Assembly: GCF_003334305.1 (NCBI RefSeq)
Contig: NZ_QOWS01000016.1
Direction: 5' to 3' (one strand)
DNA from: Escherichia coli
Lineage (GTDB): Bacteria > Pseudomonadota > Gammaproteobacteria > Enterobacterales > Enterobacteriaceae
Length of the DNA stretch: 64,000 nucleotides
The notes under the pieces were generated by a model that did not search any database, was not told where the DNA came from, and saw only the letters and a program-made list of their open reading frames with translations. The position numbers and the translations under genes were made by a program. Position 1 is the stretch's first letter. Every line of letters starts with the position of its first letter. Shown here in pieces: positions 3,867 through 51,442 of this stretch.

Positions 3867-4216
3867 TAACTCCTTTCGAGCACGCAGTCGCTGGTGCAGT
3901 GGCTGCGCGCTGCAAAATTATCTGCTGTTTTTAACCTTTTCTTAAAGATTGTTTCACTTATCTTGTGTCGATTTGGCTTTATCACATAGAGCAAATACGC
4001 ATAAAAATTTGTTAAATACCGTTTTTTAATCCGAGCTATAGTCTCAAACCCTGGCTAAAGTTATTCTTGCGATGCTTTTATATAGCGAGCAGTGCTGGCC
4101 GGGAGAGAGTTCTCTTTTCTTACACCGCGCCGATAAAAAATATGCACGTTTATTGCATATCTTTCAGTGTGACAACTTTTGTTCGTTTGTTAACGAACTT
4201 TCAGAAGGAAAGAGAT

Positions 4217-11157: not shown

Positions 11158-11247
11158 TGTAGGCCGGATAAGGCGTCCACGCCGCATCCGGCACAGGCAC
11201 CGTGCTGATGTCTGATGCGACGCTGGCGCGTCTTATCAGACCTACAA
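11158..11247. repeat. REP-type extragenic palindromes between artJ and artM
   Basis: TGTAGGCCGGATAAGGCGTCCACGCCGCATCCGGCAC and GCGACGCTGGCGCGTCTTATCAGACCTACA. Confidence 0.7.
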
Positions 11248-17261: not shown

Positions 17262-18692
17262 TTAATCTGTGCTTTGTTCTGCCAGTCTGGCGATTTGTTT
17301 TGCCATTCCGCGAAAAATAAACAGATGCGCGGGGATCATCAATAACCAGTAAAACAGCCCCGGCATACCGTGCGGATGCCAGAAAGCGCGGACATCGATA
17401 GTACGATAGTCGCCTTTATCTTCCAGGCTAAAACACAGTCGTCCCAGCCCCGGCGCTTTCATGCCAAATAACAACGTAAGTTGTTTTTCCGGTTCAACGA
17501 CAATCACTTTCCAGCTATCTACCGCATCGCCAGTCTGTAAATATTCGCGCTCCGGGCGGCCTTTCGCCAGCTTATGACCGATCGCGCGGTCCATCAACGC
17601 CCGTGTCTGCCACAAAATATTGCCAAAGAAATAACGCTCTTTACCGCCGATTTGGTTCACTACCTGCCATAAAGCAGCAAGGCTGGCGGACGTTTTAACG
17701 GTAAACCCCGCCTGTTTGGCAAAATAACCGTACTCCGGTCGCCAGCGGGCAAAGGCCTGAGCGTCGTAGCCCCAGTCGCTGGAGTTGACCAGTTTTTCCT
17801 CCTCTTTCAACGTGCTACGTACCGCGTCATCGAAAGCGATCAGCCGTTGTGGGATGAGTGCACGTAGCGCGGTATCATCCGCCAGCAGATCGTGTTTCAG
17901 CCCCTGAATCAACGCCCTGGCGGTGGTGGGCGGTACGGAAGTAATCACATTGAGAAACCACACCGAAATCCAGCGGGTGGGGAGGGGGATGGGGATCAAC
18001 CAGCGGCGCTTACCGCTCACCGCCATAAAATGTTCAAACTGTTGCTGATAACTGAGCACCTCTGGTCCGGCGGCTTCGAAGATGCGGTGTTCGCTGGCCG
18101 GATGATCTAACAACGCCACCAGATAGTGCAGCAAGTTTTCCAGCGCGATGGGCGTGGTGCGTGAACGTACCCAGCGTGGCGGCGTTAACACTGGCAGGTT
18201 GTAGACCATATCGCGCATGACTTCGAACGCCGCTGAACCTGCGCCAACGATAATTCCGGCCCGAAGTTCGGTCACAGGTACATTCGATTCACGAAGAATG
18301 TCCGCCGTAGCCTGACGAGCACGCAGATGATCCGACTGCTCATGTGGCGGGGCCTGCAACGAACTGAGAAAGATTAATTGCTTAACTGGTACTTCACGTA
18401 GCGCATCGCGGACGTTGAGAGCCACCTGGCGCTCCTGAGCGATAAAATCGCCGCCTTCGCCCATGCTGTGCACCAGAAAATAGACGGTATCGATATCCTG
18501 CAACAGGGCCGAAAGGTTATCCGGCCAGCTGAGATCGACTTTATGGCAACTGACGTTTGCCAGTTGCAGCTTTGCAAGCCTGTCGACATGACGTGCCGCC
18601 GCCAGGATCTGATGCCCTTGCTGGCTGAGTGTGCGCACCAGATGCTGACCAATGTAGCCACTGGCACCGAGAACTAAAATGCGTTGCGGCAC
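17262..18692 (-). CDS. ybjT: NAD(P)-binding domain protein YbjT
   Basis: ORF track 17262..18767 trimmed to in-frame GTG with AGGAGA RBS ([19 protein letters not shown]), 476 aa; 10 nt downstream of ltaE stop. Confidence 0.75.
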
Positions 18693-18702
18693 GTCTCTCT
18701 CC

Positions 18703-19704
18703 TTAACGCGCCAGGAATGCGCGCCAGTGGGCGGCGACTTCCGCCAGTTGTTCGCGCGAGACGTCAAGATGCGTCACCAGGCGGACAATCGGCGAGGCGT
18801 TAATCAGCACGTTTCTCGCTTTCATGTATTCGCCTAACGCGGCAGCATTTTCTTCCCCGACGCGAACAAACAGCATATTAGTGTCCTGACGCATCACATC
18901 CGCGCCTGCTTCACGCAGTTGCTCCGCCATCCAGGCGGCGTTGTCGTGATCTTCCTGCAACCGTGCGACGTTATTTTTCAGGGCATACATCCCGGCGGCA
19001 GCCAGAATCCCGGACTGACGCATCCCGCCACCGGCCATTTTCCGCCAGCGGATGGCACGTTTAATGTAATCACGATTACCGACGAGTAATGAACCGACTG
19101 GCGTCCCAAGACCTTTCGACAGGCAAATGGTGAACGAATCACAATATTGCGTGATCTCTTTCAGTTCGCAGCCGTAAGCCACCACGGCATTAAAGATGCG
19201 CGCACCGTCAACATGCAGCGCCAGATTGCGCTCGCGGGTAAATTCCCATGCTTCTTTCAGGTATTCACGCGGCAGCACTTTGCCGTTGTGGGTGTTTTCC
19301 AGACTGAGTAATTTGGTGCGGGCGAAATGGATATCGTCGGGTTTGATTTTCATCGCCACTTTATCCAGCGGTAGCGTGCCGTCGGCAGCCGCGTCGATGG
19401 GTTGCGGCTGAATACTGCCCAGCACCGCTGCGCCACCGGCTTCAAACAGATAGTTATGCGCGGCCTGACCGACAATATACTCTTCGCCACGTTCGCAGTG
19501 ACTGAGCAGAGCGACCAGGTTGGCCTGAGTGCCGGTAGGCAGAAAAATGGCGGCTTCTTTACCGGAAAGCTCTGCTGCATAGTCCTGCAGAGCATGAACG
19601 GTAGGGTCGTCTCCGTAAACGTCGTCCCCAACCGGGGCGGCCATCATCGCTTCGAGCATGGCGCGGCTCGGTCGGGTAACGGTATCACTGCGTAAATCAA
19701 TCAT
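18703..19704 (-). CDS. ltaE: Low-specificity L-threonine aldolase LtaE
   Basis: 333-aa ORF recognised as LtaE ([31 protein letters not shown]...). Confidence 0.9.
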
Positions 19705-24367: not shown

Positions 24368-25267
24368 TTACGCAGAGAAAAAGGCGATGAGGATCGGCAC
24401 TAACAGGCTAAGAATAAAACCGTGAACAATTGCCGCCGGGACCATATCCAGCCCGCCAGTACGTTGAAGAACGGGCAGGGTGAAATCCATTGATGTGGCA
24501 CCGCATAAGCCCAGTGCAGTAGAGCGGCTGCGGCGAATCAGCCCAGGGATCAACATAATAGCAATCAGTTCACGGGCCAGATCATTAAAAAACGCCGCGC
24601 TCCCGATTACCGGACCAAAAGATTCGGTCAATAAAATACCGGAAAGAGAATACCAGCCGAAACCGGAGGCCATTGCCAGCGCGGTATTGATGGGGAGATC
24701 AAGAATAAAGGCGTTAATTAAACCACCAATTAATGAACTGACAACCACCACCACGGCGACAATCATTCCCCGGCGATTAAGGACAATCTGCTTTAAGGTC
24801 ATGCCATTATTGCGCAACTGAATACCAACGAGGAAAAGTAGCAAAATTAACGTGTATTCACTGGCTTCGGTCGCGTGTTGTAAGAAAGCCAGTCCACTCA
24901 GACCAATGGCAAAACCAATCACTACTACGCCGCACAGTTTTAGCGACTCCAGCGCCATCGCAATACGCGACGGGAGTTTTTCTTGCTGATGGTGGTTGCG
25001 CCACGGCAGGCCTCGCTCCAGCCACATCAGGGCGGCAATATTACACAGTAAAATAACGGTAATACTGACGGCAGAATAATGCAGAATCGCCAACAGGTTA
25101 CTGGCGAGGTTATCGAGAAACGCCAGACTGATACCCATAAAAAAGAGAATAAGGTAAACCATCCAGCTTAATAGCTGATTAATAACTTTTAACGCAGCTT
25201 GTTGGCGAAGCGGAATGAGGTAACCCACAATCAGGGGAACCAGAATGATTAACAGCCCAGAAAACAT
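24368..25267 (-). CDS. ybjE: Lysine exporter LysO (YbjE)
   Basis: ORF track 24368..25315 trimmed to ATG at 25267 (MFSGLLIILVPLIVGYLIPL...), 299 aa multi-TM protein. Confidence 0.8.
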   Translation of the reverse strand: MFSGLLIILVPLIVGYLIPLRQQAALKVINQLLSWMVYLILFFMGISLAFLDNLASNLLAILHYSAVSITVILLCNIAALMWLERGLPWRNHHQQEKLPSRIAMALESLKLCGVVVIGFAIGLSGLAFLQHATEASEYTLILLLFLVGIQLRNNGMTLKQIVLNRRGMIVAVVVVVSSLIGGLINAFILDLPINTALAMASGFGWYSLSGILLTESFGPVIGSAAFFNDLARELIAIMLIPGLIRRSRSTALGLCGATSMDFTLPVLQRTGGLDMVPAAIVHGFILSLLVPILIAFFSA

Positions 25268-25721
25268 GAAAACCCAGTCCTTGCAAAGATGAAGTCGAAA
25301 TGCGCGATGACACACTACTGAAAGCGGAAGGACGAGTAAAGTTGCAATTAAAAGGAAATGTTATGCATAAGGAGCAGTAGAGTATTCGTTTTCATTTAAA
25401 GATATTCTTGCGCTTTAATTACAAACTGCACCGATGTTGGTGGCGTCAAAATCGCCGAGGCGTTCCCTGAAGGCCGGGGCAGCCCACATGGATGTGGGCT
25501 GAGGGCGCGTTTTACAGGGATGTTACCTCGCGCCCGACCCGGTAGCCGTAAGGTATAAGTCGAGGGCACCGCGCAGCGGCGATTTTGTTCGCCAGAGCCC
25601 GGGGGTGCATGGGGCGGCGGCGATTGGCCGCCCCCTGCGCGCTCTTTGCGCCAGTGGCAATATGTGGCTTAGCTCATGAAAGGAGCGCAACAAGATGATG
25701 AATCAACATATAACAACATCT

Positions 25722-25750
25722 TAAAAAAAGGCCTGATATTACGCCAGGCC
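25722..25750 (-). terminator. Rho-independent terminator of aqpZ
   Basis: GGCCTG...CAGGCC stem; on the minus strand followed by a 7-nt T-run. Confidence 0.6.
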
Positions 25751-25761
25751 TTCTGCGTTAA

Positions 25762-26457
25762 TTAATCACGCTTTTCCAGCAGGGTCCGGTAAATCAGACC
25801 ACCGATAATGCCGCCGACAATTGGCACCACCCAGAAGAACCACAGTTGTTCTAATGCCCAGCCGCCCTGGAAGATAGCAACCGCGGTGCTGCGCGCCGGG
25901 TTAACAGAAGTGTTAGTCACCGGAATACTAATTAAGTGAATCAGGGTTAAGGCCAGACCAATAGCGATCGGCGCAAAACCTGCCGGCGCGAATTTGTCGG
26001 TTGCGCCGTGGATCACCAACAGGAAACCTGCACTCAATACCAGTTCAACTACCAGCGCGGAAAGCATGGAATAACCGCCTGGTGAATGCTCGCCATAACC
26101 GTTAGAAGCAAAACCGCTGGCTGCCGCGTCAAAACCCGTTTTACCACTGGCAATTAAATACAGCAGCGCCGCTGCAACAATACCGCCGACAACCTGGGCA
26201 ATTACGTAGCCAACGACTTCTTTTGCCGGAAAACGTCCGCCAGCCCATAAACCAATAGTGACCGCCGGGTTAAAATGACCACCAGAAATATGACCAACAG
26301 CAAAGGCCATCGTCAGAACGGTCAGACCGAACGCCAACGCCACGCCGGCAAAACCAATGCCTAATTCCGGGAAGCCTGCGGCCAGAACAGCACTACCACA
26401 GCCACCAAAAACAAGCCAGAAAGTACCAAAACATTCAGCTGCTAATTTTCTGAACAT
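25762..26457 (-). CDS. aqpZ: Aquaporin Z
   Basis: ORF track 25762..26463 trimmed to ATG at 26457 ([19 protein letters not shown]...), 231 aa; both NPA motifs present (HFNPAVT, VNPARS). Confidence 0.9.
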
Positions 26458-36162: not shown

Positions 36163-36250
36163 GTTCACTGCCGTACAGGCAGCTTAGAAATCGACGGGGT
36201 GCGGTAAAACCTTTGCGAACGCGTTCACTGCCGTACAGACAGATAAAATG
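36163..36250 (+). CRISPR. Orphan type I-F CRISPR mini-array: two 28-bp repeats flanking one 32-bp spacer; no adjacent cas genes
   Basis: Repeat 1 (36163-36190) GTTCACTGCCGTACAGGCAGCTTAGAAA matches the E. coli/Yersinia-type I-F repeat; spacer (36191-36222) TCGACGGGGTGCGGTAAAACCTTTGCGAACGC; repeat 2 (36223-36250) GTTCACTGCCGTACAGACAGATAAAATG is degenerate at its 3' end, as expected for a terminal repeat. Putative leader 36013-36162. Confidence 0.8.
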
Positions 36251-36293: not shown

Positions 36294-36381
36294 TGGCGGT
36301 GAGGGGGGGATTCGAACCCCCGATACGTTGCCGTATACACACTTTCCAGGCGTGCTCCTTCAGCCACTCGGACACCTCACC
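36294..36381 (-). tRNA. serW: tRNA-Ser (anticodon GGA)
   Basis: Reverse complement gives GGTGAGGTGTCCGAGTGGCTGAAGGAGCACGCCTGGAAAGTGTG...GGTTCGAATCCCCCCCTCACCGCCA: 88 nt, long variable arm, CU-GGA-AA anticodon loop, encoded CCA end. Confidence 0.9.
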
Positions 36382-51204: not shown

Positions 51205-51225
51205 TACCCAATTTTTCTGAATCTA

Positions 51226-51250
51226 AAAAGCGCCTGCGGGCGCTTTTTTT
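51226..51250 (+). terminator. Rho-independent terminator of serS
   Basis: AGCGCC-tgcg-GGCGCT stem followed by a 7-nt T-run. Confidence 0.7.
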
Positions 51251-51258
51251 GTCTCCCT

Positions 51259-51272
51259 TTGATACCGAACAA
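51259..51272 (+). promoter_or_regulatory. FNR-type binding site upstream of dmsA
   Basis: TTGAT-accg-AACAA, 9/10 match to TTGAT-N4-ATCAA; ~170 bp upstream of the dmsA ATG, consistent with an anaerobically activated promoter and long leader. Confidence 0.45.
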
Positions 51273-51442
51273 TAATTACTCCTCACTTACACGTAATACT
51301 ACTTTCGAGTGAAAATCTACCTATCTCTTTGATTTTCAAATTATTCGATGTATACAAGCCTATATAGCGAACTGCTATAGAAATAATTACACAATACGGT
51401 TTGTTACTGGAATCAATCGTGAGCAAGCTTGAGTGAGCCATT

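Follow-up and report, generated by a model that had tools for sequence, protein, structure and literature searches.

The GC-rich block between aqpZ and lysO of Escherichia coli is very probably TRIP1a (RRS-lysO), a known repeat whose G-rich strand appears to be selected for its fold

Between aqpZ and lysO (ybjE), two minus-strand genes of Escherichia coli, lies a GC-rich, hairpin-dense stretch of non-coding DNA, and the question is whether it is a structured leader of lysO, an RNA gene, a gene remnant or a repeat. We analysed it within a window of 64 kb (the whole stretch of DNA under study), in which the ATG of lysO is at 25267 and the stop codon of aqpZ at 25762-25764. The composition described by the original prediction holds: the GC content of 100-nt windows is 0.55-0.69 over 25400-25699, compared with 0.36-0.38 towards lysO (25300-25449) and 0.41-0.42 towards aqpZ (25650-25799). 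Over 25426-25700 it is 62-69%, with 36-42% in the AT-rich flanks. All three inverted repeats that had been named were found at the block and mapped, and a further 16-nt closing stem (25447-25462 / 25572-25587) was absent from the earlier account. As had been stated, the block holds no open reading frame of at least 60 aa (the longest that overlap it are of 57, 56, 37 and 32 aa), and the distance of about 170 bp to the ybjE start agrees with an element that begins 168 nt upstream of the lysO ATG. The limits first given, 25440-25690, were roughly right but slightly too narrow, as the conserved core spans 25435-25691 and conserved junction sequence reaches ~25419 and ~25712, about 15-20 nt beyond each core end. 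The block is thereby confirmed as a real, non-random feature. A promoter and terminator scan of 25200-25900 detected no sites; the aqpZ terminator listed below was missed by the scan because its loop is 9 nt long.

25481-25489 / 25492-25500: inverted repeat AGCCCACAT / ATGTGGGCT
25503-25509 / 25529-25535: inverted repeat GGGCGCG / CGCGCCC
25611-25618 / 25627-25634: inverted repeat GGGGCGGC / GCCGCCCC
25728-25752, minus strand: intrinsic terminator hairpin of aqpZ, recognised from its inverted repeat and sequence, with the T-run on the minus strand; outside the repeat

The block is very probably the copy of the TRIP1 repeat next to lysO (TRIP1a), published as RRS-lysO and acting at the DNA level, because its coordinates fit both published definitions exactly and the K-12 copy aligns with it. 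The TRIP1 family was first listed by Rudd in 1999 and is described in Li et al. 2024 (PMC10888264), where TRIP1a is a 266-bp element that lies 158 bp from ybjE on its upstream side and, downstream of aqpZ, 70 bp from the gene and 31 bp from its terminator, and all TRIP1 copies have 62-65% GC. The RRS, or 'replication risk sequence', comes from Pham, Cox, Goodman and colleagues (PMC10287960, 2023; PMC11194060, 2024), who equate it with the TRIP1 repeat of 1999. RRS-lysO comprises 222 bp, 168-389 bp upstream of lysO, and the extended RRS covers 168-434 bp (PMC11194060). In window coordinates these definitions are as follows.

25426-25691, plus strand: TRIP1a according to Li et al. 2024, positions computed from the distances in PMC10888264; copies at other loci align end to end
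25435-25656, plus strand: RRS-lysO, 222 bp, from the offset to the lysO ATG in PMC11194060
25435-25701, plus strand: extended RRS (168-434 bp, PMC11194060)

At an identical distance from lysO, MG1655 (K-12) has its RRS-lysO, which departs from the window copy at 4 of 256 positions. The plus strand of the window is the G-rich one, antisense to both lysO and aqpZ. Position, a length of ~266 bp, 62-65% GC, the paralogous loci, a form with a 125-bp deletion and the occurrence of two orientations at lysO and dusC are all shared with TRIP1 as described in PMC10888264, and nothing material differs beyond the four positions that separate the window copy from K-12 TRIP1a; covariation, the strand bias of wobble pairs and the Klebsiella copies are absent from that paper and are added here. 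The 222-bp sequence and its offset from lysO are likewise those of the RRS papers (PMC10287960, PMC11194060, bioRxiv 10.64898/2026.06.16.732529). The element was thus already known, catalogued in 1999 and functionally characterised since 2023.

A GC-rich repeat element had been one of the alternatives considered at the outset, and a similarity search for a repeat family bears it out. The block was matched in all 5,426 complete E. coli genomes surveyed, at a median of three places each (range 1-10) that include unrelated loci, and at 14 places in one K. pneumoniae chromosome; within the 64-kb window it is single copy. The survey query comprised 361 nt across the block, both halves of which are separately multi-copy. 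Paralogous copies were found at four further loci.

Between putP and efeU (ycdN): paralogue, TRIP1b locus
Between alx and sstT: paralogue, TRIP1d locus
Between dusC (yohI) and yohP/mdtQ (yohG): paralogue, TRIP1c locus
Downstream of an ABC-F gene in Klebsiella: paralogue

The first three correspond to TRIP1b at putP-ycdN, which has a 125-bp internal deletion, TRIP1d at alx-sstT and TRIP1c at yohI-yohG (PMC10888264). Copies align end to end over ~256 nt, from TGTTGGTGGCG to GGAGCGCAA. A short form of ~130 nt lacks an internal segment of 125 nt.

25484-25608, plus strand: segment missing from short forms of the TRIP1b type; the two GGA hairpins lie in it, as does the first G-run of the G-quadruplex (G4) tract

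Between putP and efeU, a short copy (131 nt, L002) and a long copy (257 nt, L003) from other strains are otherwise identical in sequence. A short form is also present at lysO in some genomes (121 nt), with a junction unlike that at putP-efeU; since the junctions differ, the short forms are independent internal deletions. A separate contig scan with the 5'-end pattern GTGTTGGTGGCNTNAAANTCGC was too strict: it failed to recover the main E. coli, K. pneumoniae and Kluyvera representatives, and eight of its 22 loci were unrelated chance or coding matches, namely six in Sphingomonadales (L012, L021-L023, L028, L029), one in Coriobacteriales (L020) and a weak match of 37 nt in Klebsiella (L018).

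What is conserved among these copies is addressed by folding and by comparative alignment. Folded as DNA, the plus strand reaches -73.3 kcal/mol (z -5.23) and the minus strand -70.3 kcal/mol (z -5.34); folded as RNA, the z scores are -4.39 and -3.80, respectively. None of 200 shuffles folds as well in any of the four runs. The helices that matter most are listed here.

25441-25594, plus strand: internal module closed by P1 (25441-25463 / 25571-25594; helix 2), a multibranch with two hairpins, from the minimum free energy (MFE) folds
25480-25501, plus strand: hairpin 1, stem 25480-25488 / 25493-25501; apical CATGGATG (25487-25494) invariant in 19 of 19 long copies
25503-25535, plus strand: hairpin 2, outer stem 25503-25509 / 25529-25535; apical ACAGGGATGT at 25514-25523, CA.GGA invariant
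25601-25644, plus strand: hairpin 3, 16-bp stem 25601-25618 / 25627-25644; the 5' arm is the G4 tract

The comparative alignment proposed at the outset does contain compensatory base changes, and the fold of four helices is preserved in it. Of its 19 distinct long copies, six are from Klebsiella and the others from several species of Escherichia, where they represent four loci. Pairs were counted for the MFE structure of the window mapped on it; the RNAalifold consensus, which mis-paired hairpin 1, was set aside. Of all cells, 88.5% pair, and sliding the partners by one to three columns lowers this to 35-43%. Twelve pairs carry compensatory changes, a number reached in none of 500 shuffles, in an alignment where about half of the columns are invariant. 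The support is concentrated in P1 and hairpins 1, 2 and 3. P1 is 98.4% paired with one compensatory pair; hairpin 1 has three (for example, CCCAC/GTGGG to CGCGC/GCGCG and to CCCGC/GCGGG); helices 6 and 7 of hairpin 2 have one apiece; and hairpin 3 (helix 10) is 99.7% paired with four. In two Escherichia copies the stem of hairpin 3 changes from GGGGGCGGC/GCCGCCCCC to GGGGGAGGA/TCCTCCCCC, and in two Klebsiella copies a G to A change inside the G-run is matched by C to T in the partner (GAGGG/CCCTC), so that the stem is kept. Helices 9, 11 and 12 of the 3' tail (25595-25690) were dropped, being only 50-64% paired on this alignment.

The imperfect pairs carry information on the strand. G.T wobbles, pairs that only the G-rich strand can form, occupy 85 cells in 11 pairs, against 21 cells in 5 pairs for A.C combinations, which pair only on the other strand. 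P1 (31 cells) and hairpin 3 (34 cells) together have 65 G.T to 0 A.C on the plus strand. This bias agrees with the stronger block published for the G strand; mutational bias could contribute to it, and the copies are phylogenetically non-independent. We infer from the aligned copies that the feature under selection is the fold of the whole G-rich strand; judged by the same comparison, hairpin 3 is demonstrably protected by evolution.

The 5' arm of hairpin 3 coincides with the single G4 tract, GGGGGTGCAGGGGGCGGCGG, that was predicted on the G-rich strand of the RRS (PMC11194060).

25601-25620, plus strand: G-quadruplex-forming tract GGGGGTGCATGGGGCGGCGG, one base off the published K-12 tract GGGGGTGCAGGGGGCGGCGG

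The window allele has, at tract position 10, a T in place of G, and its G4Hunter score is 1.68, compared with 1.84 in K-12; folding of this allele into a quadruplex is a prediction. The tract lacks four runs of at least three G, with only two-G runs in its 3' half, and therefore at best a two-tetrad quadruplex is predicted. The minus strand has one two-G motif start only, which confines the predicted G4 to the plus strand. In two Klebsiella copies, G4Hunter falls to ~1.0 while the stem of hairpin 3 is retained through compensatory change. As these copies lose G4 propensity and keep the hairpin, the conserved polymerase block may be the hairpin rather than the quadruplex. The sole other bacterial G4 sequence cited by the RRS authors as triggering a replication-linked gap or nick is the pilE-associated G4 of Neisseria gonorrhoeae. 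It is unrelated in sequence, serves pilin antigenic variation and not chromosome topology, and is a canonical three-tetrad G4, unlike the RRS tract with its two-G runs.

How the element acts has been shown by others in experiments on replication. Cumulative GC skew of the plus strand is positive throughout the 64-kb window, which aligns collinearly with the right replichore of MG1655 at 0.915 Mb; the G-rich plus strand is therefore the lagging-strand template, as published. According to that work, fork unwinding leaves this template briefly single-stranded during Okazaki-fragment synthesis, and the G-rich strand, with its G4-capable tract and hairpins, then folds very stably. The fold halts the lagging-strand polymerase, and re-priming downstream leaves a gap of up to ~2 kb onto which SSB and RecA are loaded. 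Several published observations underlie this account. In ssGap-seq, lagging-strand single-stranded DNA bound by RecA and SSB starts at each RRS and spans ~2 kb, and deletion of an RRS, at lysO or dusC, abolishes the peak at that locus (PMC10287960). In vitro, the G4 site arrests polymerases I, II and IV, and ectopic RRS copies create new gaps (PMC11194060). In single-molecule experiments, almost all encounters with a replisome produced a gap if the lagging template was the G strand; with the complementary strand in that role, there were about two-thirds as many gaps (bioRxiv 10.64898/2026.06.16.732529).

The inverted partner of RRS-lysO lies near dusC, and each RRS is ~650 kb from dif according to the RRS papers; in MG1655 we place the partner at 2,229,115-2,229,386 on the opposite strand. 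Under the authors' hypothesis the pair, symmetric about dif, would be a topological relief valve for the Ter macrodomain, situated at its borders. Genome-wide supercoiling changes when both copies are deleted or both inverted, a double deletion needs a compensating 200-kb amplification or the presence of ectopic or inverted copies, and at least one copy is conditionally essential, while deletion of RRS-lysO alone gave no measurable growth defect (PMC11194060). For the window copy, the gap mechanism would hold by analogy with these three papers, all from one collaborating group.

The RRS papers stress conserved orientation and position, whereas our survey found orientation to be polymorphic at both lysO and dusC. 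With an 801-nt query that has the arrangement of the window (K-12 type), 4,027 of the 5,426 genomes are collinear over at least 80%, and in 1,282 (~24%), including an O157:H7 strain, the element is inverted between aqpZ and lysO. This inverted allele, first seen in E69, is full length and has its G strand in the sense of aqpZ and lysO. On a plasmid-labelled contig, the inverted element is also of the short form; its inversion takes in ~16 nt of junction, and other sequence stands in place of the aqpZ terminator region. At dusC, 1,999 genomes (37%) have the E69-type orientation, inverted relative to K-12: in E69 the G strand runs against dusC, and in K-12 it is co-directional with the gene. Relative to neighbouring genes, the G strand is antisense at lysO, and sense at dusC (K-12) and at alx-sstT. 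These proportions match those of Li et al., whose counts for TRIP1a are 3,448 forward and 1,255 reverse, who found TRIP1c split about evenly between the two orientations, and who list swapped flanks as a separate class (PMC10888264). Recombination between inverted copies swaps flanks and therefore does not flip an element in place; the orientation alleles thus point to independent insertion or replacement, which is the behaviour of a mobile repeat. Such variety is not easily reconciled with a strict rule that the lagging template must be the G strand, and inverted RRS copies are reported to keep cells viable (PMC11194060).

This raises the possibility that TRIP1 is a selfish or passively recombining repeat, MITE-like and non-autonomous, whose effects on replication are a by-product of GC-rich palindromes. 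Copy number and occupancy vary among strains (also in PMC10888264), and 1-10 copies per E. coli genome with 14 in one Klebsiella fit a selfish repeat equally with a positioned functional element. Both orientations occur at one locus with differing junctions that travel with the element, the short forms arose separately, the Klebsiella copies are expanded and have longer conserved flanks, and near-identical copies in Kluyvera (PMC10287960) suggest transfer. We infer from copy number, orientation and the Klebsiella expansion that the family behaves like a mobile or recombining repeat. As a full explanation the selfish reading is nonetheless unlikely: no transposase, terminal inverted repeats or target-site duplications were seen at the element ends, the element was not matched in the phage record collection, compensatory changes and invariant loops indicate selection on the fold, and conditional essentiality of at least one copy has been published (PMC11194060). 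It is also compatible with an element acting at the DNA level, as a mobile repeat could be co-opted. Other extragenic repeats, REP/BIME and ERIC/IRU, are likewise GC-rich or palindromic, multi-copy and hairpin-forming. They share no sequence similarity with the block, on which no naRNA4/REP model matched, and TRIP1, at ~260 nt and 1-10 copies per E. coli genome, is much longer than REP (~35 nt).

The DNA-level element TRIP1a/RRS-lysO has a resemblance to an RNA motif. Rfam was searched on both strands at permissive thresholds (E up to 10), and the sole match was TwoAYGGAY (RF01731), on the plus strand at 25446-25585, with 30.8 bits, below the gathering threshold of 43 bits (E 0.045 when 3.5 kb were searched, 0.0037 when the element was searched by itself). 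Models of riboswitches, leaders, sRNAs and REP gave no match to the block on either strand. The scores of two further E. coli copies are 33.1 and 29.8 bits, and the copy of Klebsiella aerogenes has no match at E up to 10. TRIP1 and TwoAYGGAY have in common a long closing stem, two hairpins with A-N-GGA-Y loops and multiple copies in a genome. In the window, loop 1, CAUGGAUG (AUGGAU), fits AYGGAY, and loop 2, ACAGGGAUGU (AGGGAU), does not strictly; it reads ACGGAC in some Klebsiella copies. The SELEX consensus of CsrA is RUACARGGAUGU, a string that occurs in 22 papers, and ACAUGGAUGU and ACAGGGAUGU resemble it. AGGGAU/AGGGAC (CAGGGAU) loops do occur in the TwoAYGGAY alignment of Weinberg et al. 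2010, whose gammaproteobacterial members are several near-identical copies from Psychromonas ingrahamii, and TwoAYGGAY is itself predicted to bind CsrA (Gardner and Eldai 2015, PMC4333381). The differences are the sub-threshold score, the second loop, Klebsiella homologues that escape the model, and an extra 3' module (G4 tract and hairpin) that lies outside it. The match is a resemblance, not membership, and a lead only.

The closing stem, two GGA-loop hairpins and covarying stems of the internal 125-nt module leave a slim chance that this part of TRIP1/RRS belongs to TwoAYGGAY as a divergent member. If it did, CsrA-binding RNAs would also be transcribed from the G-rich strand of RRS copies; conversely, the TwoAYGGAY elements of Clostridia, Psychromonas and gut metagenomes would be RRS-like gap elements at the DNA level or substrates of a hairpin-recognising protein. 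Neither link was found in the TRIP1 or RRS literature examined.

Slimmer still is the prospect that the block is a non-coding RNA gene, its plus strand giving a TwoAYGGAY-like RNA that titrates CsrA with the two GGA-loop hairpins. The strand and architecture of the only Rfam match, its CsrA-like loops, their invariance and the covarying stems would all suit such a gene. With about half of the alignment columns invariant, the invariance of the loops is weak evidence, and the three E. coli matches, all below 43 bits, are paralogues that count as one observation. The orientation relative to neighbouring genes is not conserved, and a literature search yielded no usable CsrA CLIP data over lysO or dusC and no transcription or CsrA-binding data for the element. 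The earlier suggestion of an sRNA gene was not upheld either by Rfam, where no sRNA model matched, or by the negative promoter and terminator scan.

The main proposal of the original prediction, that the block is a structured 5' leader of the lysO mRNA (an attenuator or a lysine-responsive riboswitch-like element), is highly improbable. Its attractions are the placement between the aqpZ terminator and the lysO start and the minus-strand RNA, in the sense of lysO, which folds better than shuffles (z -3.80). The same block stands at unrelated loci (putP, dusC, alx/sstT and the Klebsiella ABC-F gene) and in variable orientation, and multi-copy occurrence at unrelated loci is what that prediction had itself named as speaking against a leader; we rejected it on these grounds. 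Between this one pair of genes the element is inverted in 1,282 of 5,426 genomes and cut down to 121 nt in others, so that a leader RNA of constant form is not conserved. The covariance scan gave no riboswitch or leader family and no cis-regulatory match on the minus strand at E up to 10, the wobbles favour the strand antisense to lysO, the loss of RRS-lysO was without measurable effect on growth (PMC11194060), the promoter scan was empty, and a literature search yielded no usable transcription start for lysO.

We give virtually no credence to a decayed protein-coding gene, also suggested initially: ORFs of 56-57 aa do overlap the block on the minus strand, but the copies differ by indels of 1, 2 and 11 nt, not multiples of three, which rules out a coding remnant, and their substitutions are paired and compensatory with no codon-position pattern, so that the structure signal explains the conservation.

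For the annotation of this locus, the analysis removes a false riboswitch or leader candidate and supplies the correct label, TRIP1a / RRS-lysO; as a discovery it is of little consequence, the element being already known and characterised. For those who work on the RRS, it offers three points. The comparative data suggest selection for hairpins, one of them made of the G4 tract. At both loci, the orientation of the RRS varies within natural populations. Finally, the twin GGA-loop hairpins resemble an orphan Rfam motif.

Among the 5,426 complete genomes of E. coli, the TRIP1a repeat (RRS-lysO) at the aqpZ-lysO site lies in the orientation of the window in 4,027 and is flipped in place in 1,282. 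The inverted allele is represented by the following copies:

L013 (locus of E. coli E69), 3897-4152: inverted element between aqpZ and lysO
L001 (plasmid-labelled record NZ_CP148327.1), 3963-4083: inverted element between aqpZ and lysO
H99 (genome of an O157:H7 strain): inverted element between aqpZ and lysO

The two orientation alleles have unlike junction sequences, and about 16 nt of the 5' flank moves along with the inverted element. Inversion in place cannot be produced by recombination between the two copies of the element. The copy at dusC also varies, with the orientation seen in E69, which is inverted relative to K-12, detected in 1,999 of the 5,426 complete genomes.

Within RRS-lysO, the source strain of the window carries T at 25610, inside the G4 tract, where K-12 has G (GGGGGTGCATGGGG...); the three other differences from K-12 are at 25554, 25645, and 25666. 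The published G4 tract forms the 5' arm of hairpin 3 (window 25601-25644; columns 169-214 of the alignment of 19 distinct long copies), a 16-bp stem preserved by four compensatory pairs. In two Klebsiella copies (L007 and L019) the G4 propensity is lost (G4Hunter about 1.0) and hairpin 3 is retained. Copies at two different loci (L004 and L030) have 11-nt deletions in the region of the 3' arm of hairpin 3 (alignment columns 203-216), the missing stretch being CTGCGCGCTCC or a neighbouring one. Such deletions appear to stem from slippage that has recurred between short direct repeats.

Several other features are found in the window:

17975-17995, + strand: canonical G4 motif GGGTGGGGAGGGGGATGGGG, in which G occurs in four runs of at least three
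36163-36243: two type I-F CRISPR repeats, GTTCACTGCCGTACAGGCAGCTTAGAAA and GTTCACTGCCGTACAGACAG, one of the two degenerate
51218-51352, - strand: sRNA STnc130 (Rfam, 140 bits, above threshold)
11162-11242, + strand: REP-derived naRNA4 element (Rfam, 78.5 bits, above threshold)

The G4 motif has the top G4Hunter score in the window (2.44) and lies within a 501-aa ORF (17262-18767, - strand), 7.6 kb from the RRS; both are on the same lagging-template strand. The CRISPR repeats (spacing about 33 nt; Rfam CRISPR-DR4, 50.1 bits) adjoin a tRNA (36297-36381, - strand), and the pair looks like an orphan mini-array. STnc130 and naRNA4 are ordinary features without relation to TRIP1a/RRS-lysO.

A 432-bp contig labelled Pseudobutyrivibrio xylanivorans (NZ_VTVE01000017.1) contains an element of the short form, 131 nt long and one base apart from L002, the copy of that form at putP-efeU in E. 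coli; it is almost certainly E. coli contamination of that assembly. The plasmid-labelled records L001, L002, L003, and several from PLSDB carry core chromosomal genes in long stretches (macA-ybjX-ybjD-aqpZ-lysO-hcp-hcr-poxB; efeUOB-putP-putA), and some are 4-5 Mb in length. These records are mislabelled chromosomes or chromosome fragments.

The Klebsiella copies (L007, L008, L015-L017, and L019), which are laid out as …gctggctgaaactgccgg, the element, and then t.tgctctgaa…cgtttttccc…, share 20-40 nt more conserved sequence per side than the E. coli copies, and one K. pneumoniae chromosome has 14 places matching the element. The family is therefore larger and more numerous in Klebsiella.
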